A stretch of 64,000 nt of DNA from NCBI GenBank assembly GCA_050950825.1, contig JBMNIH010000003.1, positions 333,117 through 397,116 on the forward strand, written 5' to 3'. Below are positions 10,085 to 57,944 of the stretch, piece after piece; within the stretch, counting starts at the first letter, position 1, and every line of letters starts with the position of its first letter. The notes under the pieces were generated by a model. It was not told the DNA's origin, made no database searches, and was given only the letters and a program-made list of their open reading frames with translations. The DNA is from Clostridia bacterium. GTDB taxonomy: Bacteria > Bacillota > Clostridia > JAAYHZ01. The position numbers and the translations under genes were made by a program.

Positions 10085-10313
10085 ATATAACACCTCCTTC
10101 CGGGAGTATCGGATATAAAATAAACCTCGTACATATAGACATACGAGGCTTTAAGAATAATCAATGATTATAATCCATTCTATTCTTCATGTTTCATTAA
10201 AACATTACCTCGGTAGGATGGCTTTTTAAGCTCTTACGAGCTCCTACTGTCTATAGTAACGTGTGCCATTATACATCAGTTGTTTTCAAAAAGCAATCGA
10301 TTTTTTAAAATTT
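10085..10313 (-). promoter_or_regulatory. rplJ (L10) leader, probable autoregulatory leader region
   Basis: ~230-nt structured untranslated region between rplA and rplJ, the position where an L10 autoregulatory leader is expected; structure not modelled. Confidence 0.5.
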
Positions 10314-23625: not shown

Positions 23626-24129
23626 TCAATAACAATCGATGATTTCTCCGATATAGAATACGTGGTAATCCTTTTTCGGATAATGTCTTTTATCAATTTC
23701 TTTATTCAGAAAAGTCGGATCCATGGCCTGCCGGTACAGGATCTTGCACTCGTATTGGGTTTCGCATCCTTCCACCACAGGTGCATTCACCGATCTTCCT
23801 TCTCCCTTTTTCAATCCCGCCAATTCGAATTTATCTCGGTCGCGGCCGGATACCGTACCGCAAATTTGCAAAGCCTCCTTCATCTCGTCAGCCTTCGGCA
23901 CGCCCACAATAAAAACGTCGGAATTCGACAAAAGCTCGTGGGTATATCGGGTAGGCCGTACCACCACGTTTAAAACGGGTTTTCCCCACATGACGCCGAT
24001 GAACCCCCAGCCGATGGTCATTACGTTGTCCCTTTCTTTATCTCTTGTACACAAAAACATTCCTTTCGGCATTTGCAGATTGAAACGATCGGATAATTCG
24101 CCTAAATCTTTTAATTTCACCTCAATCAC
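23626..24129 (-). CDS. Flavin reductase-like (FMN-binding split barrel) protein
   Basis: 167 aa; GTG start. Confidence 0.6.
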   Translation of the reverse strand: MIEVKLKDLGELSDRFNLQMPKGMFLCTRDKERDNVMTIGWGFIGVMWGKPVLNVVVRPTRYTHELLSNSDVFIVGVPKADEMKEALQICGTVSGRDRDKFELAGLKKGEGRSVNAPVVEGCETQYECKILYRQAMDPTFLNKEIDKRHYPKKDYHVFYIGEIIDCY

Positions 24130-24208: not shown

Positions 24209-24835
24209 CTATGCTCCGCCGTCCAAAACCAAGCTTACGGATCGGGGAAACGGATTGTCAAACTTGAAATGCCCGGCATATTCTTCCCGAAGCTCTCCGT
24301 TGATCTTAAATACTACGGATTGAATATCCTTCAATTCGGTGAGGGAGTTTACAATGGAATAGATGGTCAGCGCCTCTAATGTTTTTCCGCCTGGATGATT
24401 TTCCACAAAAGCATCGTTTAAGTTCACAATGGCCTTATCTCCGTCGATTTCCACCGTGTCCAGCAAAGCACTGTCTTCCGGTATGACGGCTTTTAAATCC
24501 GAATCGGAAGGACCAAGCAGCAATTGGTTCACAATAGCCGTAGCAAGGCTTGCGGTGCTTTTGGCCGCTTCTTCAATGGGAATGTACCGAACCTCCGTGG
24601 CAAGTCCCGTCAAATCCTCGTTACCGAAATACAGATAAACGGGAACTCTCTGAGGCTTTAAGGTTTCATTGGATACGGCGGATATCCCGCTGACAGGAGC
24701 CGTTTCTTCCCCCCCTAGAGTAAAAACAAGTACGGCCGTCACCGCGCAAGCGACAATCAGCAATCCGGCCAGATAGTATTTCAGATTTTTTCTTAAGTTC
24801 AACCGGGCCAACCGATTTTTTAACATTTTTATCAT
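24209..24835 (-). CDS. GerMN-domain protein (spore germination GerM-like)
   Basis: N-terminal TM anchor plus GerMN-like domain. Confidence 0.6.
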   Translation of the reverse strand: MIKMLKNRLARLNLRKNLKYYLAGLLIVACAVTAVLVFTLGGEETAPVSGISAVSNETLKPQRVPVYLYFGNEDLTGLATEVRYIPIEEAAKSTASLATAIVNQLLLGPSDSDLKAVIPEDSALLDTVEIDGDKAIVNLNDAFVENHPGGKTLEALTIYSIVNSLTELKDIQSVVFKINGELREEYAGHFKFDNPFPRSVSLVLDGGA

Positions 24836-27437: not shown

Positions 27438-28355
27438 TCAAGGCCGTAAGTAAAGCTTTTCTACCGTTTCCTTGTCCACAACTCCGATTTCTTCAAAGGT
27501 TGCGTTCGAAGCGGCGCAAGCCGTGGCAAAGCGCAGCATGTCGAAAGGCTTGTACCCTCTTTGTAGTCCGACGGCCAAGCCTGCCGTCATGGCGTCGCCG
27601 CAGCCGATGGTATTGACCGCGTTCACGGAAAAAGCCTTCATAAAATGGATTTGATCTTCAAAGGACAAAAACGCTCCTTCCGATCCCATGGAAACGCATA
27701 CATACGAAATGCCTTTTTCCCGAAGACGTCCGCAATATTCCGCTATTTGTTCCTTGCCGGGCTTTTCATTTCCCATTAATGCACCCATTTCCCGAACATT
27801 GGGCTTGATCGCCGTCGGACCTGCTTCGATCCCCTTTTCGAGAGGTTGTCCGGATGCATCCAAAACGGTGTATTTTCCAAGATCCTTCGCAAAAAGTATG
27901 AGCGTTTTGTAAATATCCGGATCAACGCCCTTCGGAAGGCTTCCGCTTAACACAACCACCGAAGCCTCCTCCACGGCTTTTTTTGCCGTCTCGAAAAATT
28001 CATCGATTTTTTGAGGCGGTATCAAAGGCCCCGGTTCGGTAATTTCCGTTTCTTTCCCGGTTTTCAAATCCATAATGTTGACGGTGGTTCTGGTTTCTTG
28101 GTTTTCCAGCCAAACCGGTTTCGTCCGGACACCGCGGCCGTCCAAGTCGGATATAATGTATCGGCCGGCGGCTCCTGCGAAAAAGCCGGTAAGACAAACC
28201 GGCTCCTCCAAAGCGGCAACAACCTTCGCTACATTGACCCCTTTTCCTCCGGCGGAAACAAGAATCTTTTGCCCGCGGTTTAACGTCCCGGTTTTCAATT
28301 CCTGCACATACACGATGCGGTCCAAACAAGGATTCAAGGATACGGCTAATATCAC
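27438..28355 (-). CDS. PfkB-family sugar-phosphate kinase (1-phosphofructokinase / tagatose-6-phosphate kinase-like)
   Basis: 305 aa; ribokinase fold with C-terminal GCGDAMTAG; GTG start. Confidence 0.8.
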   Translation of the reverse strand: MILAVSLNPCLDRIVYVQELKTGTLNRGQKILVSAGGKGVNVAKVVAALEEPVCLTGFFAGAAGRYIISDLDGRGVRTKPVWLENQETRTTVNIMDLKTGKETEITEPGPLIPPQKIDEFFETAKKAVEEASVVVLSGSLPKGVDPDIYKTLILFAKDLGKYTVLDASGQPLEKGIEAGPTAIKPNVREMGALMGNEKPGKEQIAEYCGRLREKGISYVCVSMGSEGAFLSFEDQIHFMKAFSVNAVNTIGCGDAMTAGLAVGLQRGYKPFDMLRFATACAASNATFEEIGVVDKETVEKLYLRP

Positions 28356-28383
28356 GATATCATCTCCACGGATTCCATATTTT

Positions 28384-29721
28384 TTAGCTTCTCGCCACTT
28401 GGATCATAATGGCACATTCGATTCGTTTTTTCTGCAAGGTGCAGGCAATCTTATCCGGCTTGAAAATATCGCCGTTGGTATAATAGGCGTTGGCATGACA
28501 GCCTCCGGAGCAAAAATATTTCGCCCAGCACCCTTTACAGTCTTCTTTTCCGAATACATGGGCGGAGGCAAACTTAAGCTGCATCTGCCTGTCGGTAATT
28601 CCGGTTTCCAAGTCTCCGATGGCAAATTCCTCTTGCCCTACGAACTGATGGCAAGGATAGATTTTCCCGTCGGGAGCAACGGCTACATACTCGGTTCCGG
28701 ATCCGCAAGCGGTAATTCTTTTGGAAAGACAAGGTCCGTCGTAAATATCGATATTAAAATGATAGAACCGGTAATCCGTATCATCTTTTGCGTACTCAAT
28801 CGCAAATTTTTCGTATTCTCTTAAAATATCATCCAAATCTTCTTCTTTAATATGGAAGGATTCCCCCTTCCCGGTCACGGGCTCGATGGAAATTTCACGA
28901 AAACCCAAAGAACGGATATGGCGTACGTCCTCGGAAAAGTCCTTGTTCAAAGACGTAAAGGTACCTCGTATGAAATACGGTTTGCCTTTGCGATTATCCG
29001 TAATCTTTTTGGCGTTTTTCACGATTTGCTCGTAAGTCCCTTTTCCGGCTGCGTTCTTTCGCATCCGGTCGTTCACGCTCTTTCGGCCGTCCAAGCTGAT
29101 TACGATATTTCCCATATGCTCGTTCAAAAATTCCGCTTGCTCTTCCGTAACGTGGACGGCATTGGTGGTCATGGTGAAGAAGAATTTTTTCCCGAATTTT
29201 TCTTCCAAGCTTTTTCCGTATTCTACCGCCGCTTTCACAACGTCAAAATTCATTAAAGGCTCTCCGCCGAAGAAATCCACCTCGATGTTTTTCCGCCTCC
29301 CGGAGTGCTCGACCAAATAATCCAACGCCTTTAAGGCGATTTCCTTGGACATTAACGATCGGCCGGTTTTGTAATCTCCCTTCGAGGCAAAGCAATATTC
29401 GCAGCGGAGATTGCAGTCATGAGCTACATGAAGACATATGGCTTTAAGCCCTTTGTAAAGGCTTAATTCCGGGTCCAAAGCAATTTGGGGGTCCTCCGAA
29501 TACAACACCCCTTCATCGTAAAGCTCTTTAATCTCCTGCCAGACGTCGGTCAAGCGATCTTCCGTATTCCTTCCTTTGAAAAGACTCAGTACCTGCTCCT
29601 TTGTCGGCATCGTATCAAAGGCATTTAATATTTCATAAGTTATATCATCGGTTACATGAATACTGCCGGAGTTGACATCCAGCACGATATTGTAACCGTT
29701 CATTTTATAGGTATGTATCAT
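28384..29721 (-). CDS. Radical SAM / SPASM-domain peptide-modifying enzyme (SCIFF-maturase-like)
   Basis: CNLRCEYC (CxxxCxxC) after a ~100-aa N-terminal domain; Cys-rich C-terminal SPASM region; start set at MIHTYK (ATG 29721, GGAG upstream). Confidence 0.75.
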   Translation of the reverse strand: MIHTYKMNGYNIVLDVNSGSIHVTDDITYEILNAFDTMPTKEQVLSLFKGRNTEDRLTDVWQEIKELYDEGVLYSEDPQIALDPELSLYKGLKAICLHVAHDCNLRCEYCFASKGDYKTGRSLMSKEIALKALDYLVEHSGRRKNIEVDFFGGEPLMNFDVVKAAVEYGKSLEEKFGKKFFFTMTTNAVHVTEEQAEFLNEHMGNIVISLDGRKSVNDRMRKNAAGKGTYEQIVKNAKKITDNRKGKPYFIRGTFTSLNKDFSEDVRHIRSLGFREISIEPVTGKGESFHIKEEDLDDILREYEKFAIEYAKDDTDYRFYHFNIDIYDGPCLSKRITACGSGTEYVAVAPDGKIYPCHQFVGQEEFAIGDLETGITDRQMQLKFASAHVFGKEDCKGCWAKYFCSGGCHANAYYTNGDIFKPDKIACTLQKKRIECAIMIQVARS

Positions 29722-29874
29722 TTTCCTTCTCCAAAACATTTATTGTCTGTCCATTATACATGACTTTGCCTTGCAGGTAAAGTATCGGAAAATCATGCCG
29801 GAAAACGGTATAAAAAAAGAAACACAATCTTTTAAAAAAGATCATGTTTCCTTGTAGGATCTAAGCCAAACTAA

Positions 29875-29903
29875 TTTTATCAATAGTTATTTTATCAATA
29901 GTT
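29875..29903. repeat. Tandem direct repeat TTTTATCAATAGTT x2 (15-bp period)
   Basis: Identical 14-mers at 29875-29888 and 29890-29903, upstream of the radical SAM gene and overlapping the stop of the upstream ORF. Confidence 0.8.
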
Positions 29904-31179
29904 TTTTCTTGCGTATTCGTCGGCCTTGTCAATCATAGCCTGGTGCTGTTGGTCTACGCGATTGGTGCTATGGGTTTTGCTCATATAGAAGTGAACGTCG
30001 AAAACGCCGTGCATGTTATTTCCTTTTACCGCGTCCAAGTTATCCCCGTATCCGTAGGCCGCCGCTTCGATCATAGACCTTGACGGCGGAAGGCTTGTCA
30101 TCCCGCCCCGCATGAGGCATTCCCGCCATGGAAGCCGCAATATAGGTATCGCCTACGATAAGGATAATGGCTCTTCTTTCCCAACTGAAGCTGCCGCCAA
30201 ACACGCTTTTCATAATGGCGGTATCTTGAGCCGTTAACGTTTCGGTATCGGCATGATTGTAACCGAAGGTTCTTTTGACCTGAAACGTTTTACCGGTGTC
30301 GATATCCAAAACGGTAGCAACCGTTCCGATTTTGAAAATGTTTTGCGCTTGACTCCAAGGAATCTTAAAAGTATTGTTGGACGGAGAAGAATAGCTTGCA
30401 GCCAAAGCACTTTGGCCGGTTACGGTCGTGACTTTTCCGGCGATAATGTCTTGAATCAACGAGTAGGTTTCCGCACCTACCACACCGTCGCTCACTTTAC
30501 CGTACTTGTATTGAAGATTCTTCACCGCTTGCTCCGTATAGGAACCGAAATAGCCCGTACACGTACCGGAAAAATAGCCGATTAACTTCAAATTTTCTTG
30601 TAAGGCTTTTACTTCCGCTCCGGACATTCCTTTTTTCAAAACGACGTTCCGATATGTTTGTGCCGTAAGAGCTCTTTTGATTGTTTCCGCCGTTTTTGAC
30701 CCTACCACACCGTCACTGTACAAATTATATGCTCTTTGGAAAGCCTTTACGGCATTTTCGGTTGCTTCTCCGAAATACCCGGTTGCATTACCGCTAAAAT
30801 ACCCTAACGCTTTCAAGTCCTCCTGCAATTGAGAAACATCATCGCCGGATAAGCCTTCCTTTAGGGTTCGGCTATAGGATTCATTTCGCTCCAGCAATGA
30901 ACGGATTAAAGACAACGTCTGAGACCCTGCGATTCCGTCTTGTATGTACCCGTTACTACCTTGCAGTTTTTTCACCGCTTGTTCTGTCACATCACCATAA
31001 TATCCCGTGCACTCCTCTTGGAAATACCCCAATTTCTTTAAATCTCTCTGGAGCTGCACTACTTGTTCCCCACTCATTCCTTTTTGCAGGAGAGTCGATG
31101 CTGATACTTTGGAACCGATCGGCACTGTCAGAAGCACCAAGGATAAAATACAGGCCGCGGCTCCTTTCGCTTTTAGCAT
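29895..31179 (-). pseudogene. Secreted protein with three peptidoglycan-binding repeats and a C-terminal domain of unknown family; apparent frameshift
   Basis: ORF 30040..31188 carries three LxxGxxGxxVxxLQxxLKxLGYF repeats; a protein-like continuation lies in another frame (29895..30140) across a G-run near 30105-30125. Confidence 0.6.
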
Positions 31180-31414
31180 TCGCGACAACCCCCTTGTATA
31201 TAATTGTTGTCCATATTATAGCACAATAGGATAACCTGCGAAAGTTTCTAGGGGGGTGAAAAATTTTCCATGCAGATTCTTAATCGTTTTGAAATATGTC
31301 TGTAATATTTCACCCGAATTTTTCCGGATCCGAAAAATATGTAAGGCAAAAGCGCTAAATGCTTTTGCCTTGCTGTTTTTGAAGGGTTTTAAATCTCCTG
31401 AAAACCGGTTTACG

Positions 31415-34065: not shown

Positions 34066-34320
34066 ATATAAATAAAGCCCCTTGTATTAAAATTTATACA
34101 AGGGGCGAATTAGCCGCGGTACCACCCTTCTTGAAACACGTAAAAATACGTGTTTCCACTCCTTCGCATTATCGCTGCGTAAACGTCGGTTATTTCATAA
34201 ACCGCTTCTCAGGGGTGGGAAGACGTATAACTCGTAAGAAAAACTCTCACCTTGCTTTTTCTCGCTGTATTACGGTACTTATACTCTATTCCCCGTCATC
34301 GAATGAACAATATCAATTTT
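34066..34320 (-). promoter_or_regulatory. T-box leader (tRNA-sensing riboswitch) of proS
   Basis: Minus strand carries the T-box AAGGGTGGTACCGCGG (34110-34127) followed by terminator hairpin GCCCCTTGTAT...ATACAAGGGGC and a U-run; specifier codon not determined. Confidence 0.8.
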
Positions 34321-53876: not shown

Positions 53877-54146
53877 ATGATTATCAATGGAAATCCAATC
53901 ATTTCGGATTCTATCTTAAAATTTTCGGATAGCGAAATTCATGTGGATATCGAGGGAATTCGTTTTTATATACTTTTAGACAGAAATTTTTTCAGCAGAA
54001 AACACATTTTATCCTTCCTTCGGCACAAGCACGGAGCTATTGAAATCTTCTTTGTTCGCGACGGTCAAGGGGAAATGAGCATCGGTAATAAAACATATGA
54101 GCTGTCGAAAAATAGAATCTATATCGTCAATAAGTGTTTACGCTGA
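53877..54146 (+). pseudogene. AraC-family regulator, N-terminal fragment truncated by an insertion element
   Basis: Frame ends 13 nt inside the insertion; joins in frame to 57296..57944 if the element and one duplication copy are removed. Confidence 0.7.
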
Positions 54147-54354
54147 GTTAAAATGTCCAAAAACTGATGGAATTGCCTGTCCAGATATTGCTGGTATATA
54201 ATGGCCATATACATTCTATAGAAAGAAAAAAGCGTCCTTGTTTCAATGTGATACTGTTACAGCAGTAGCACCAAGGACGTCCCCAAACTATGATCATTAT
54301 ATCAAAATATGAACTAGAAGAAAAGGCAGAAGAACAAGTTTTTATGTAAGAAGT

Positions 54355-54819
54355 TTGGAGCAGTTTCTATGTCCCTGCTGCAGGAGTAACCGTATGAAGG
54401 TTGTAGGGAGCAGGCCCAGGAAGTACCTGCAGGAGGATGCCTCGCAAGTGATATTGATAATACGCAGGCTGCGCTGCCTGGAATGTAACAAGATACATCA
54501 CGAATTGCCCGATATACTGGTTCCATACAAACGGTACAAAAGCGAATGCATAGAGACAGTTGTAGCAGAAGATAACAACACTCCGCTAGCAATAGCATGT
54601 GATGAATCTACGCTATACCGGTGGAAAAAGTGGTTTAACTCTTTAAGCAGGTATTTTGCAGGTTGCTTGCAGTCCATAGCAATACAGCTGGGAAGAGAAA
54701 CTGAAGAAGCTTCAGGACCAATATCCGTCCTCCATAGGATATGGTTTTATGTTATCGCCACTGCTGGCCGAGGGCCTGGATCCTGCAAAAGCGAAAGAGA
54801 TCAAAGCCCGTATATGTGA
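54355..54819 (+). CDS. Element-encoded zinc-ribbon protein of unknown function
   Basis: CPCC ... CLEC Cys4 motif at the N-terminus; overlaps the transposase start in another frame. Confidence 0.4.
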   Translation: MEQFLCPCCRSNRMKVVGSRPRKYLQEDASQVILIIRRLRCLECNKIHHELPDILVPYKRYKSECIETVVAEDNNTPLAIACDESTLYRWKKWFNSLSRYFAGCLQSIAIQLGRETEEASGPISVLHRIWFYVIATAGRGPGSCKSERDQSPYM

Positions 54820-56056
54820 ACAAACCGGTATATCAGAGCGTACTCTCCGAAGATATGTGGCACAATACCGGGAAGCCGGATTCGACGGTTTAAAGCCTAA
54901 AGGAAAGAGCCAAAGAAAAACAGAGGATGCCATACCATCCCATGTATTGGAGCAGGCTATTCTTCTGCGCAGGCAGGTTCCAAGCCGTAGCGTATCACAG
55001 TTGATAAACATCCTGGAGTGGGAAGGAATTGTAGAGCCGGGCCGGATAAAGCGCAGCACACTGCAGGAGCAATTGGCAAACCGGGGGTACAGTGCAAGAC
55101 AGATGAAAATGTACACATCAACGGGAGTAGCAGCGCGCAGGTTCCAACATCGGTATCGCAATAAGCTCTGGCATTCGGACATCAAGTATGGCCCTTATCT
55201 TCCTATCGGCAGGGATGGAGAAAAAAAGCAGGTGTTTTTGGTTCTCTTCGTGGATGATGCTACCAGATACGTTCTTCATGGAGAATTTTATCCCACCCTG
55301 GATAAAGTCATCGTAGAGGATTGCTTCCGGAAGTCCATTCTTAAGCATGGTGTGCCCGAAGCCGTATTTTTTGATAACGGCAGCCAATACAGGAACAAGT
55401 GGATGACACGGGCATGTGCAAAAATGGGCATTCGTCTGCTCTATGCCCGCCCCTACTCGCCGGAAGCAACCGGCAAAGTTGAGAGGCTGAACCGGGTAGT
55501 GGATTCCTTTCTTACAGAGGCCGCTTTGGAGAAACCACAGACCCTGGAAAGGTTGAACGAGCTGTTCCAGGTATGGCTTACCGAATGCTATCAGAACAGG
55601 CCCCATTCCGCCCTGGTGAATCACATGAGTCCGGAGGTTGCATACCGAAGTGATACGAAACCCCAAAGGTTTATTGACCCGGACGTCCTGGCTCAGGCGT
55701 TTTTGCATTTTGAGGAACGCAAGGTGGATAAAGCAGGCTGTATCAGCTTCAACGGCCAAAAGTATGAGGTTGGCCTTCCCTTTATTGGCTGCACCGTAGA
55801 TGTGATCTATGATCCGGCATACACCGACGAGCTTACCATTGAGTATGAAGGCCATAGCCCATGGAAGGCTAAGAAGCTGGTAATAGGTGAACGATCCGGT
55901 CGACGGCCTGATTTACCGGAATATCTTACCACCGAAAAAGCGGAGGCATCCCGCTTGCTAAGAGCAGCCAAAAAGAAGAACGAGCAGCGCATAGAACAGT
56001 ACATGCCTGCCGTCTCTTACAGAAACGTGGCCAAGGGTGGTGAGCAGAATGTTTGA
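54749..56056 (+). CDS. DDE (rve/integrase-core) transposase with N-terminal HTH (IstA/TniA-like)
   Basis: HTH (ISERTLRRYVAQYREAG); catalytic-triad candidates WHSD, FDNGSQY, KVERLN. Confidence 0.75.
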   Translation: MLSPLLAEGLDPAKAKEIKARICEQTGISERTLRRYVAQYREAGFDGLKPKGKSQRKTEDAIPSHVLEQAILLRRQVPSRSVSQLINILEWEGIVEPGRIKRSTLQEQLANRGYSARQMKMYTSTGVAARRFQHRYRNKLWHSDIKYGPYLPIGRDGEKKQVFLVLFVDDATRYVLHGEFYPTLDKVIVEDCFRKSILKHGVPEAVFFDNGSQYRNKWMTRACAKMGIRLLYARPYSPEATGKVERLNRVVDSFLTEAALEKPQTLERLNELFQVWLTECYQNRPHSALVNHMSPEVAYRSDTKPQRFIDPDVLAQAFLHFEERKVDKAGCISFNGQKYEVGLPFIGCTVDVIYDPAYTDELTIEYEGHSPWKAKKLVIGERSGRRPDLPEYLTTEKAEASRLLRAAKKKNEQRIEQYMPAVSYRNVAKGGEQNV

Positions 56057-56849
56057 AGCCTTTTATGGGTTTAAACGCACACCCTTCACACGTGATATTC
56101 CTACTGACCAGCTTTATCAGCCCATCATACCGGAAGAGACATTAGGGCGCCTGCAATATGCTGCAGATCGTCAGTTGTTCGCTGTTGTTACCGGGGACTG
56201 CGGTACCGGCAAAACCACAGCTATCCGCCGTTTCCGGGATATTCTGGACTCTTCACGATTTCATGTTATGTACCTTGCCGATTCCAAACTGACGCCCAGG
56301 CATTTCTACAAGGGTTTACTGGAGCAGCTGGGGTGTGAGGCAAAATTCTACCGTGGAGATGCCAAACGCCAGCTGCACCGGGAAATTGAGCTTATGAAGG
56401 GAATCCATAAACTGCAGCCTGTTGTCATAGTTGATGAAGCTCATCTTTTAGACCGAGAGATGCTGGAAGAGGTTCGTTTCCTGCTGAATTTCAAGATGGA
56501 CTCAGAAAGCCCAATGGCTTTAATTCTGGTGGGACAGTCAGAGTTGTGGGATAAATTCCAGCTCCAGGCATATGCCGCCATCAAGCAACGTATTGATATT
56601 CAGTGCAAACTGAATCATTATGATCGGGCTCAGGTGGGTGAATACGTACATAGACATTTAGAGTATGCAGCTTGCGACAGGGAAATTTTCTCTGAAGCGG
56701 CGTTGGATGAGATATTTAAGTATTCCAGCGGCTCTGCCAGGCTCATAAACAAGCTTTGCACCCATTGCCTGCTGTTCGGTGCTCAAAATGGCCGCAAAAT
56801 CATTGATGACCATATGGTAAAGCTCGTGATACAGGGGGAATTGGCGTGA
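56037..56849 (+). CDS. AAA+ transposition helper ATPase (IstB/TniB/ExeA-like)
   Basis: Walker A GDCGTGKTT, Walker B VIVDEAHLL, C-terminal GSARLINKLC block; overlaps the transposase end by 20 nt. Confidence 0.7.
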   Translation: MVSRMFEAFYGFKRTPFTRDIPTDQLYQPIIPEETLGRLQYAADRQLFAVVTGDCGTGKTTAIRRFRDILDSSRFHVMYLADSKLTPRHFYKGLLEQLGCEAKFYRGDAKRQLHREIELMKGIHKLQPVVIVDEAHLLDREMLEEVRFLLNFKMDSESPMALILVGQSELWDKFQLQAYAAIKQRIDIQCKLNHYDRAQVGEYVHRHLEYAACDREIFSEAALDEIFKYSSGSARLINKLCTHCLLFGAQNGRKIIDDHMVKLVIQGELA

Positions 56850-57172
56850 TACAATTCCACTGTTCTTATCAATGGGATGATGGTAGTAAAGACATATGGC
56901 ATGGTACTGTTAGCCAGGTTATTAATTTCGGCAGCCACTATGAGATTTTCATTTTAAGCCGGAGCAGCTTGCGGGTACTGGTTGGTCAATCAACCTCAGG
57001 GTTGTTTGCCTGTCTTCCTGATTGTAGCGCAGGGTGCCATTTGAGTACCCTTAATGATACTTTCTACAACAGTGAGAAGTTGATTTATGCTTTAGGAAAT
57101 GTTGTAGACGGTATGACAATAGCTTATGCTTTCAAAGCATTGGAACCATTTTTAAACTTCAATAACGACTAA
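56846..57172 (+). CDS. Element-encoded small hypothetical protein
   Basis: 108-aa ORF overlapping the ATPase stop; followed by perfect 10-bp hairpin AGCGGATAAC-CTTTTA-GTTATCCGCT (57179-57204). Confidence 0.35.
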   Translation: MIQFHCSYQWDDGSKDIWHGTVSQVINFGSHYEIFILSRSSLRVLVGQSTSGLFACLPDCSAGCHLSTLNDTFYNSEKLIYALGNVVDGMTIAYAFKALEPFLNFNND

Positions 57173-57278
57173 ATACATAGCGGATAACCTTTTAGTTATC
57201 CGCTCATGCCTTCGCTTTATTGGCAGTTATACCGTCAACTTTTGGTCAATTAACAACATCTATTTCGGGACAATTTGA

Positions 57279-57944
57279 GCTAGCATTAACAATAAAGGAT
57301 CGTATCATTGCCAATCAATCCATAATACGATCGAAGGATACTCCTTTCAGTTTCGTTATGAAGTACAAAAGCCTGCGGAATCCGTCTTCGCTCACAGCGA
57401 GCGCAATCTTTTTCTTGAAAGATTAAACCGACTCCGGGACTGCGTCCTTGAGGATGAATACGACTGCTGCGATACCATCGAAAAAATTCATCAAGAGATG
57501 AGAGAAATGAAATTCGGGTTTTATAACAAGATCCAGACGTATTTTGCACAAATGATCATTCATATATTGCGGATGTATCAACCGAAAAATCCGGAGAAAA
57601 TCGAGCTTGAGAAAAAGAGCCCGGAGCAGTCACGGACGGAAATCATCGACAACTTCTTCTATGACAATTTTGATAAGCGATGCGGTATAGATGATCCGGC
57701 ATCCCTAGTAGGCGTGAGCAGCAGACAATTAAACCGAATCCTTAAAGAAGAATACGGTTATAGCTTTAAGCAAATCATCATGGAAATGCGAGTGGAAGTG
57801 GCAAAAGATTATCTAATCCAAACGGACGTCACCGTATCCGACATCTCCTACATCGTCGGATATACCGAACCAAGCAACTTTTGCGCCGTATTCAGAAAAG
57901 CGACAGGCAAATCTCCCGGCGCCTATAGGAAACACCGTAGATAA
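57279..57944 (+). pseudogene. AraC-family regulator, C-terminal fragment (end of sensor domain plus HTH)
   Basis: Frame open from 57279; AraC-type HTH (SDISYIVGYTEPSNFCAVFRKATGKSPGAYR). Confidence 0.7.

Follow-up and report, generated by a model that had tools for sequence, protein, structure and literature searches.

The window, the 64-kb stretch of DNA analysed here, carries on its minus strand a gene for a ScfB-like radical SAM/SPASM protein. The enclosing open reading frame in the ORF list runs over 28384..29739 on that strand, and the ATG at 29721 is the likely start, because the Shine-Dalgarno sequence GGAGAAGG is placed 7 nt upstream of it and the homologues all open with M[IV]H. The protein is thus 445 residues long, and the length of 446 in a preliminary description of this DNA is corrected accordingly. 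The span of 28384–30040 assigned to the gene in that description does contain it, but also takes in 173 nt of intergenic DNA and, upstream of that, the 3' end of a peptidoglycan-binding gene that stops at 29895; the 28-nt gap on the downstream side (28356–28383) had been given correctly. The exact protein is found in NCBI as MGI6561841.1, where it is already named a SCIFF maturase. The gene is intact and under purifying selection (pN/pS of 0.16–0.19 against the related loci L001 and L002, with synonymous sites saturated), and its cluster ligands are conserved. The features of the locus are as follows.

29816..29853, minus strand: terminator-like hairpin with a T-run (terminator scan), predicted to close the peptidoglycan-binding gene and split it from the maturase unit
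29753..29781, minus strand: promoter-like site TTTACC-17 nt-TATAAT, matching the consensus at 10/12 positions and conserved in L001
29725..29732, minus strand: Shine-Dalgarno sequence GGAGAAGG, its GGAG core 7 nt upstream of the ATG at 29721 and conserved in L001
28384..29721, minus strand: coding sequence, including the stop codon, for the ScfB-like radical SAM/SPASM protein of 445 aa (ORF list and sequence)
29452..29721, minus strand: N-terminal RRE-like peptide-recognition domain, residues 1 to about 90, whose alignment to the N-terminal domain of CteB starts at residue 1
29392..29415, minus strand: CxxxCxxC radical SAM cluster motif, C103/C107/C110, with Cys in 88/88 aligned family members
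28414..28731, minus strand: SPASM region (TIGR04085) with C331, C339, C357, C395, C398, C404, C408, C427 and C436, every one of which aligns with a Cys of CteB
27438..28355, minus strand: 1-phosphofructokinase-family hexose kinase gene, 28 nt downstream (TIGR03168, 286 bits, cut-off 216)

Judging from the promoter, terminator and ribosome-binding signals, the maturase gene would be the first of a separate transcription unit, driven by a predicted promoter of its own, and it is probably co-transcribed with the hexose kinase gene, a pfkB-family gene that also lies 3' of the maturase in L001 and L002. An extended -10 promoter had been suggested upstream of the gene. A promoter-like site is indeed present there, but it does not have the canonical TGnTATAAT form, since the TG abuts TATAAT directly. 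No Rfam match to a riboswitch or leader was found nearby, upstream of the maturase.

The protein belongs to the radical SAM superfamily (PF04055, 61.3 bits, cut-off 29.5) and to its SPASM subfamily, marked by a C-terminal Cys set for two auxiliary [4Fe-4S] clusters (TIGR04085, 72.5 bits, cut-off 27), with the Pfam SPASM model scoring marginally below its cut-off (21.2 against 21.5 bits). It passes the ScfB model TIGR03974 (609.3 bits, cut-off 425) and matches CteB (5WGG) with 487 bits over residues 1–441, at ~55% identity over the full length; given that identity to a solved structure, the fold is taken as settled. Eight of the nine C-terminal cysteines are kept in 88/88 aligned family members, and C436 in 89%. 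ScfB/CteB of Acetivibrio thermocellus and Tte1186, the SCIFF ranthipeptide maturases described by TIGR03974, which introduce cross-links into the small, Cys-rich SCIFF peptides of Clostridia, have the same order of RRE, radical SAM and SPASM domains, the cysteine ligand set is identical to that of CteB, and the thioether-forming radical chemistry is presumably the same. In the CteB structure the N-terminal domain is an RRE on which the CteA leader docks in the form of a beta-strand (PMC6231123), and by homology the N-terminus of the window protein is assigned to the RRE domains as well. The RRE-like N-terminus, the CxxxCxxC motif and the full set of SPASM cysteines thus point to the architecture of a thioether-forming RiPP maturase, as had been proposed, and the suggested resemblance to the SCIFF-maturase family was confirmed by the HMM search.

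The window gene differs from the SCIFF maturases in context: it has neither the upstream SCIFF gene nor the queA-tgt-yajC genes that precede about half of the SCIFF-linked loci. Six-frame scans that ignored start codons were run over the 64-kb window and ~18 kb of flanking sequence, the latter added from near-identical metagenome contigs by way of the end genes of the window. Neither contained a Cys-rich or SCIFF-like ORF in any frame, no SCIFF gene (TIGR03973/PF13165) lies immediately upstream, and the flanks contain no SCIFF or tgt-yajC genes. Relaxed searches for SCIFF peptides by Cys density, core motifs and the MKHIKT leader motif, applied to the window and all loci, returned nothing in the window. 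The sole apparent match, reading MDNNYIQGGCREC followed by a stop, at 31176–31247 on the minus strand and also present in L001 and L002, was rejected as the out-of-frame ribosome-binding site and start of the peptidoglycan-binding gene. Among 35 loci of the clade described below (34 fetched and the window), no small ORF is conserved beside the maturase, and the conserved small-ORF clusters near orphan maturases were, every one, shadow frames of neighbouring genes. The preliminary observation that no short Cys-rich ORF flanks the gene therefore holds for the whole window and its flanks, re-annotation brought no adjacent precursor to light, and the proposal that the precursor is elsewhere, novel or absent is supported.

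In neighbour-joining trees, the only kind constructed, the window protein and 36 relatives form one bipartition in 200/200 bootstraps (100%), separate from the SCIFF-linked maturases. No SCIFF gene occurs within 10 kb of any of the 37 clade members, in a sample biased by the retrieval of genome loci with peptide words from the query. SCIFF genes, for their part, are usually provided for: 73 of 76 assessable metagenome genes (96%) have their own ScfB 57–961 nt downstream, and these 73 enzymes fall on the other branch, none exceeding 51% identity to the query. The other three (L104, L124 and L129) truly have no adjacent ScfB, so SCIFF maturases acting in trans must exist somewhere. The window protein scores 717 bits against a profile of the orphan clade and 620 bits against one of the SCIFF-linked enzymes (98 bits apart); the orphan-clade profile was built without the window lineage, and held-out controls separate by 120–190 bits in the expected direction. 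TIGR03974 cannot separate the two clades, since every orphan-clade protein tested passes it with 586–625 bits. Lack of a linked precursor characterizes a whole, well-supported clade of ScfB-like paralogues, distinct from both the SCIFF-linked enzymes and the NCBIfam family NF040492.

Within the clade, the window protein, L001 and L002 make up a lineage that is sister to all other members. Its first RRE strand reads IVLDVNSG, which is the SCIFF-linked type, where the clade type is IAVDGNSG, and 4/12 discriminating positions are SCIFF-like in this lineage. Since the strong clade-separating positions number only four, specificity may not have changed; specificity-determining residues were considered as proof of a changed substrate and set aside as too few and too conservative. 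In a search for SCIFF/ScfB and an orphan enzyme in one genome, no Pseudobacteroides orthologue was present among the best 120 CteB matches, and matches to a SCIFF profile offered no usable connection to organisms.

Many relatives share a gene island of the iron-sulfur/'orange protein' (ORP) type. It was found at 10/37 main-clade loci (10 of the 36 members besides the window) and at 3/10 other orphan loci, and encodes NifX-like PF02579 proteins, CbiA/Fer4 ATPases, Mrp, NifU/NifS, Fur or DtxR and ZnuABC, together with DUF134, DUF1847, ARMT1-like, MBL, a PDF paralogue, Flavin_Reduct and small DUF5320 proteins, the last with a conserved N-terminal motif, MPRxDGTGPxGxGxxTGRGxGxC. Island genes are absent from all SCIFF-linked loci (0/35 genome and 0/80 metagenome loci, 0/115 in all), giving a Fisher p of ~0.001 for the association with phylogeny ignored. 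For the ORP-type metallocluster genes, the maturation factors are explicitly described as unknown (PMC6345978), and no paper connecting radical SAM maturases with islands of DUF5320 or DUF134 was found. Neighbour genes common to the whole clade were at first not seen, with synteny at the level of lineages only; the ORP-island signal emerged only when Pfam-labelled contexts were compared. Near the window gene no ORP-island or DUF5320 genes occur within about 82 kb (window and flanks), so that extending the association to it is an extrapolation. The sole candidate, a PF01613 flavin reductase gene at 23626–24129, 4.2 kb downstream, was considered as a remnant of the island; its product is just 29% identical to the island type, and the likeness is therefore probably a coincidence.

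Orphan ScfB-like enzymes are already recognized as a kind by NF040492, the 'ScfB-related radical SAM/SPASM orphan maturase', an NCBIfam exception model centred on Clostridium, whose members likewise lack a SCIFF gene beside them. Of the orphan loci outside the main clade, the three with an island (L064, L068 and L069) are the Clostridium group nearest to NF040492, and carry the same ORP/Fe-S/DUF5320 genes as many members of the window clade, genes that are missing at the window locus; L064, the one of the three that was scored, reaches 844 bits against a cut-off of 855. The window protein, in contrast, scores 532.1 bits, and the NF040492 group branches among the Clostridium SCIFF-linked enzymes and not with the window clade.

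We propose, with a probability of roughly 0.6, that the product of the window gene is an active ScfB-like enzyme, maintained by vertical descent, of the orphan paralogue clade rather than a SCIFF-linked maturase, with its substrate gene located elsewhere. Its chemistry and the location of its target elsewhere in the genome are both inferred, the former by homology with CteB. The N-terminal RRE domain would dock a peptide or small-protein substrate encoded away from the maturase gene. The [4Fe-4S] cluster of the CxxxCxxC motif would cleave SAM reductively to a 5'-deoxyadenosyl radical, which would take a hydrogen from a substrate side chain, and a substrate Cys held at the open site of auxiliary cluster I would then form an intramolecular thioether cross-link. 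The chances are about even that the target is a non-SCIFF peptide or protein tied to the Fe-S/ORP-type island, for example a DUF5320 protein, while a SCIFF peptide modified in trans is ranked as the less likely target, though a substantial one. More speculatively, orphan ScfB-like enzymes, that of the window included, could provide the missing maturation step of an Fe-S/ORP system specific to anaerobes by cross-linking the N-terminal motif of DUF5320 proteins or another island metalloprotein, the window gene having moved off the island. We regard this specific proposal as rather unlikely, but if true it would represent a new RiPP-like or peptide-derived-cofactor pathway.

The strongest competing explanation is that the enzyme is a genuine SCIFF maturase acting in trans, on a SCIFF gene that is unlinked or that lies at a yajC locus with a second ScfB, where it might add further cross-links. 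The ScfB equivalog score, the identity to CteB with the RRE included, and the SCIFF-type RRE strand kept in the window lineage are all in line with this, as are the three known unlinked SCIFF genes. Also in its favour, only one thioether has been demonstrated in the six-Cys SCIFF peptides, and cross-linking of the remaining Cys is still a question (PMC8326336). However, none of the 37 clade members is SCIFF-adjacent whereas 96% of SCIFF genes have a maturase of the other branch, the clade-specific profile is ahead by 98 bits, the relatives keep company with a quite different gene island, and no SCIFF gene occurs within about 82 kb of the window gene. We consider this explanation unlikely on balance.

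A second alternative, which we hold to be improbable, is that the protein is not a peptide maturase, being instead an anaerobic sulfatase-maturating enzyme (anSME) or a QhpD-type cross-linker of a housekeeping protein. In its favour, no precursor gene is present nearby, and some pipelines do give relatives (P0040) the name 'anaerobic sulfatase-maturating enzyme'. Structurally characterized anSMEs (4K36–4K39), whose auxiliary clusters are fully ligated (PMC6231123), share the SPASM radical SAM fold and act on protein substrates without a dedicated precursor gene. They lack an N-terminal RRE, however, which is retained and conserved here, and the window protein matches their structures with just ~50 bits and the anSME model TIGR03942 with 110.4 bits against a cut-off of 349, so that the possibility of an anSME raised in the preliminary description falls away. 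QhpD (TIGR03906) is the next best characterized relative at 277.8 bits and acts on a protein subunit, QhpC, where it makes Cys-to-Asp/Glu side-chain thioethers, showing that enzymes of this type can modify a protein in place of a dedicated RiPP precursor (PMC8326336), but this score is well short of the cut-off of 453. Neither a sulfatase nor a quinohemoprotein amine dehydrogenase gene is present among the annotated neighbours (Pfam labels for 18.4–39.7 kb of the window, and NCBIfam for eight neighbours). Other radical SAM/SPASM thioether enzymes, namely the PapB-family ranthipeptide maturases (NF047865), CcpM and the nif11-type, score 186–276 bits, all below their cut-offs, and unlike the window gene have adjacent, Cys-rich precursors.

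That an adjacent precursor was overlooked, because of a frameshift from sequencing, an atypical start codon or a novel peptide that is not Cys-rich, is very improbable. At least one 1-nt indel does separate the window from its sibling assemblies, in the gene immediately upstream of the maturase, but five independent assemblies are 99.9% identical and the three in which gaps were located (L081, L084 and L086) have none in or beside the maturase gene. The scans did not depend on start codons, and the 173-nt spacer is taken up by the terminator hairpin, promoter and ribosome-binding site, with a downstream gap of just 28 nt. The sole upstream ORF (46 aa, 29705–29845) overlaps these same signals, in a region that is poorly conserved and has gaps in both L001 and L002. 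Small ORFs conserved throughout the clade are likewise absent, no clade member has a SCIFF gene within 10 kb, and an overlooked small gene does not account for the missing precursor.

The orphan-clade assignment bears on annotation. Public pipelines name the window protein and hundreds of its relatives 'SCIFF peptide maturase', a name that probably assigns the wrong substrate, given that they group in a clade of their own, without the SCIFF partner. This could be fixed with a narrower model, or with a new one built on positions that tell the clades apart, such as H98, G169, I208 and A338.

SCIFF systems are near-universal in Clostridia, and their function is debated. A second widespread ScfB-like lineage would mean either that SCIFF peptides receive extra modifications or that there is an unrecognized class of substrate. 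The recurrence of relatives beside ORP-type metallocluster genes, in the same islands that encode uncharacterized DUF5320 proteins, offers a concrete lead. The window gene itself appears to be a conserved orphan ScfB-like maturase that by homology would form thioethers, on a substrate that is encoded elsewhere and may not be SCIFF.

The maturase gene of the window, encoding a ScfB-like radical SAM/SPASM enzyme, and the elements in the spacer upstream of it are as follows:

28384..29739, minus strand: maturase ORF, from the ORF listing
29781..29753, minus strand: promoter-like site TTTACC-17-TATAAT
29853..29816, minus strand: terminator-like hairpin

Translation likely starts at the ATG at 29721, which is preceded by the Shine-Dalgarno sequence GGAGAAGG, its GGAG core 7 nt away, and at which every homologue has the N-terminus M[IV]H. 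The product is therefore 445 aa, rather than the 446 aa of the preliminary description, whose 28-nt downstream gap is borne out. The stop of the neighbouring gene, at 29895, leaves an upstream spacer of only 173 nt. The promoter described there as an extended -10 stands as a promoter-like site but not as a canonical extended -10, since the TG directly adjoins TATAAT; together with the ribosome-binding site it is kept in L001, an 81%-identical relative. Rfam gave no element near the maturase gene. The exact protein is already held by NCBI (MGI6561841.1, 'MAG: thioether cross-link-forming SCIFF peptide maturase [Clostridia bacterium]', from a 467,850-bp contig), and many JGI and Logan metagenome assemblies carry the gene at about 99.9% DNA identity.

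The protein contains the CxxxCxxC motif (C103/C107/C110) and nine more C-terminal cysteines in the same columns as in CteB, a solved ScfB (SCIFF maturase); eight of the nine occur in 88/88 aligned family members and the ninth (C436) in 89%, and all cluster ligands are kept. With matches to Radical_SAM (PF04055, 61 bits) and SPASM (TIGR04085, 72.5 bits against a cut-off of 27), the architecture first proposed, a CxxxCxxC motif with a Cys-rich SPASM tail, is confirmed. The suggested resemblance to SCIFF maturases is likewise upheld by the NCBIfam ScfB equivalog TIGR03974 (609 bits, cut-off 425) and, among solved structures, by CteB (5WGG; residues 1-441, 487 bits, roughly 55% identity). The protein falls under the cut-off of NF040492, the NCBI exception model for a 'ScfB-related orphan maturase' (532 against 855), and of the QhpD, PapB, nif11-type and CcpM models. 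Classification as an anaerobic sulfatase-maturating enzyme, which the preliminary description had named as contrary to its reading, is rejected (110 bits against a cut-off of 349, and about 50 bits for the structures). Against L001 and L002, the closest relatives, pS is 0.76-0.86 (saturated) and pN 0.12-0.16, and the gene encodes a maintained enzyme, not a relic.

Six-frame, start-codon-independent scans for Cys density, SCIFF core motifs and the MKHIKT leader found no SCIFF-like ORF in all 64 kb of the window, nor in about 18 kb of extra flank from near-identical metagenome contigs. The claim that no Cys-rich precursor ORF adjoins the gene thus holds, and re-annotation yielded no adjacent precursor in any frame. 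The listed window neighbours of the maturase include no transporter, no peptidase and no further RiPP gene. The enzyme's own locus does not reveal the substrate. One candidate SCIFF fragment, MDNNYIQGGCREC followed by a stop at 31176-31247 (minus strand), is a mimic produced by wrong-frame reading of the start of the peptidoglycan-binding gene. The leader and start region of that gene is conserved as DNA in the window (31176-31247, minus strand), L001 (8459-8563) and L002 (7451-7510); the proteins of these three genomes share only 75-81% identity. A further promoter-like site lies here:

31242..31215: TTCGCA-16-TATAAT, with the scan's flag for TG before the second hexamer set

To place the enzyme among its relatives, 80 loci with 10-kb flanks were retrieved from species-representative genomes by peptide words from the window protein. 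A typical SCIFF gene lies directly upstream in 40/80, and is absent throughout the locus (10-kb flanks) in the 30 relatives most similar to the window protein, namely L001 (81%), L002 (75%) and 28 at 51-57% (L003-L028, L031, L035). Seven further relatives were added from the protein database. The window protein and 36 relatives form one bipartition in 200/200 bootstraps (neighbour-joining only), in which the window, L001 and L002 are the sister branch to the rest. A profile of this orphan clade, built without the window lineage, gave the window protein 717 bits and a SCIFF-linked profile 620; held-out controls were 120-190 bits apart in the expected directions. Mean identity of the N-terminal domain is 0.41 within the orphan clade and 0.40 within the SCIFF-linked clade. 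The clade spans Desulfotomaculia, Dehalobacter, Caldicoprobacter, Mahella, Acetivibrionales and Oscillospirales; no neighbour is universal in it and no small ORF is conserved across it. The missing precursor is a lineage trait, not an accident of the window locus. A third SCIFF-less group (L032, L034, L036, L043, L044, L051, L065; Thermosediminibacter, Tepidanaerobacter, Fervidicola, Thermovorax) is placed among the SCIFF-linked enzymes in the tree and gets its higher score from the SCIFF-linked profile; its loci lack SCIFF, tgt-yajC and most of the island genes described below.

The converse test began from SCIFF peptides in metagenomes (80 loci), an independent control on the query-based retrieval. 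ScfB lies 57-961 nt downstream of the SCIFF gene in 73/80, so a SCIFF gene nearly always comes with its own maturase; none of the 73 exceeds 51% identity to the window protein. Four loci were not assessable (three without room before the contig end, and L153, whose SCIFF gene runs off it). Only three SCIFF genes are genuinely unlinked, with no ScfB within 4 kb downstream:

2997-3140 of L104: SCIFF gene
3992-4135 of L124: SCIFF gene
3992-4135 of L129: SCIFF gene

Any of them could be the partner of an ScfB-like enzyme acting in trans. L129 has queA-tgt-yajC-SCIFF and then a gene for a cell-wall-binding repeat protein; its SCIFF gene is still at the canonical site and the maturase is gone from there. 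About half of the SCIFF-linked loci and no orphan locus directly follow queA-tgt-yajC, and none of these genes is in the window. The lineage of the window enzyme is a different one, without a precursor gene at its loci.

Of the 37 main-clade loci, ten (L009, L013, L016, L017, L018, L087 from Caproicibacter fermentans CP060286, L089, L177, L178, L179) lie in one kind of gene island, as do 3/3 Clostridium loci closest to NF040492 (L064, L068, L069). The island comprises NifX-like proteins (PF02579), paired CbiA ATPases with ferredoxin inserts, a Mrp/ParA protein, NifU, cysteine desulfurase, Fur or DtxR, a ZnuABC-type transporter, DUF134, DUF1847, an ARMT1-like protein, an MBL-fold protein, a peptide deformylase paralogue, a second radical SAM protein of about 310 aa, small DUF5320 proteins and a PF01613 flavin reductase, often right beside the maturase. 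Its PF02579, CbiA-Fer4 and Mrp proteins match the set of components (Orp3/4, Orp5/8 and MrpORP) described for the 'orange protein' (ORP) complex of Desulfovibrio, whose maturation factors were stated to be unknown (PMC6345978). Island genes occur in 0/35 genome SCIFF-linked loci (10-kb flanks) and 0/80 metagenome SCIFF loci (4-kb flanks), an enrichment with Fisher p about 0.001, uncorrected for phylogeny. Our literature search found no paper joining these islands to ScfB-like enzymes, and no described function for DUF5320 (PF17253). The N-terminal motif of the latter, MPRxDGTGPxGxGxxTGRGxGxC, has its Cys in 12/13 proteins compared; near orphan ScfB-like genes this invariant-looking motif is followed by a coiled-coil tail, and often only the peptide deformylase paralogue lies between the two genes. 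The DUF5320 gene is about 75-800 nt from the maturase in L068, L064, L069 and L017. The DUF5320 genes close to orphan maturases are:

9724-9897 of L068: DUF5320 gene
11590-12202 of L064: DUF5320 gene
9099-9371 of L069: DUF5320 gene
8896-9246 of L017: DUF5320 gene
5675-6004 of L178: DUF5320 gene
7556-7900 of L179: DUF5320 gene

No island gene was found in the window, its flanks or L001; the window's flavin reductase (23626-24129) shares only 29% identity with its island counterpart. The maturase neighbours in the window are housekeeping and sporulation genes. The minus-strand order is proS (preceded by a T-box leader), SH3/CAP (YkwD-like), SleB-like peptidoglycan-binding gene, maturase, 1-PFK-family hexose kinase (28 nt downstream), DUF6106, GH18/SH3 protein, GerM, flavin reductase, ddl, DUF1934, ctpA, pyrG and spoIIR; the maturase-kinase pair is kept in L001 and L002. 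Other features are:

10109-10274, minus strand: ribosomal protein L10 leader (Rfam)
31341-31373: strong bidirectional terminator-like hairpin (14 bp stem), between the YkwD-like and peptidoglycan-binding genes
34098-34308, minus strand: T-box leader upstream of proS (Rfam)
54749-56056, plus strand: ORF, 435 aa
56037-56849, plus strand: ORF, 270 aa
58018-58404, minus strand: run of five tRNA genes (Rfam)

The SleB-like gene is split (30040..31188 and 29895..30140, minus strand) by a 1-nt insertion at about 30058, an extra C in a GGCGGCC run, and is intact (427 aa) in three same-population assemblies (L081, L084, L086); the split reflects a genuine frameshift or else an error of assembly. Another 1-nt difference, an extra G relative to L081/L086, lies at 24209, where the GerM-like gene (24209..24835) ends; depending on the assembly, this gene is called with 208 or 205 aa. 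About 3.1 kb (54134-57289), where the GC skew changes sign, is absent from the otherwise collinear contig L180; its two ORFs resemble an integrase (rve) and AAA-ATPase pair elsewhere in L181, possibly an IS21-type insertion sequence with two genes.

In CteB, which has a radical SAM core and a SPASM domain, the RRE domain binds the leader of its peptide CteA as a beta-strand and the open Aux I site takes the substrate cysteine (PMC6231123). By analogy, the substrate or its leader would dock on the RRE of the window enzyme, the CxxxCxxC cluster would cleave SAM, the 5'-deoxyadenosyl radical would abstract a hydrogen, and a Cys held at Aux I would form the thioether; we have fair confidence that the chemistry would be as in CteB, the enzyme working like ScfB in this respect. 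We favour, with a probability of about 0.6, an orphan ScfB-like paralogue whose substrate is encoded elsewhere. Three points speak against a substrate that is simply SCIFF: the clade is never SCIFF-linked, SCIFF genes carry their own enzyme, and two phylogenetically separate orphan groups share the Fe-S/ORP/DUF5320 island. Four points speak in the opposite direction: the window lineage is the first branch in the clade and lies away from the island, it has a SCIFF-type RRE strand (IVLDVNSG, not IAVDGNSG), its residues are SCIFF-like at 4/12 discriminating positions, and a few SCIFF genes are truly unpaired. According to reviews, a single cross-link has been demonstrated for the six-Cys SCIFF peptides (PMC8326336). 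The rival reading, a genuine SCIFF maturase with the SCIFF gene elsewhere in the genome, is rather unlikely. For an orphan paralogue, a non-SCIFF target has about an even chance and is somewhat likelier than SCIFF in trans.

Among the defining features of ScfB that were tested, two are missing: the window enzyme neither has a SCIFF gene next to it nor groups with the SCIFF-linked enzymes, and it is therefore not filed as ScfB. Like NF040492 it is an ScfB-related orphan maturase, a kind already recognised by NCBI, but it scores under that cut-off and its clade is different, larger and taxonomically broader. Other clade members score 586-625 bits on TIGR03974, and this NCBI ScfB model takes in a precursor-less lineage too. 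As a lead, the association with the island could make the window enzyme more important.
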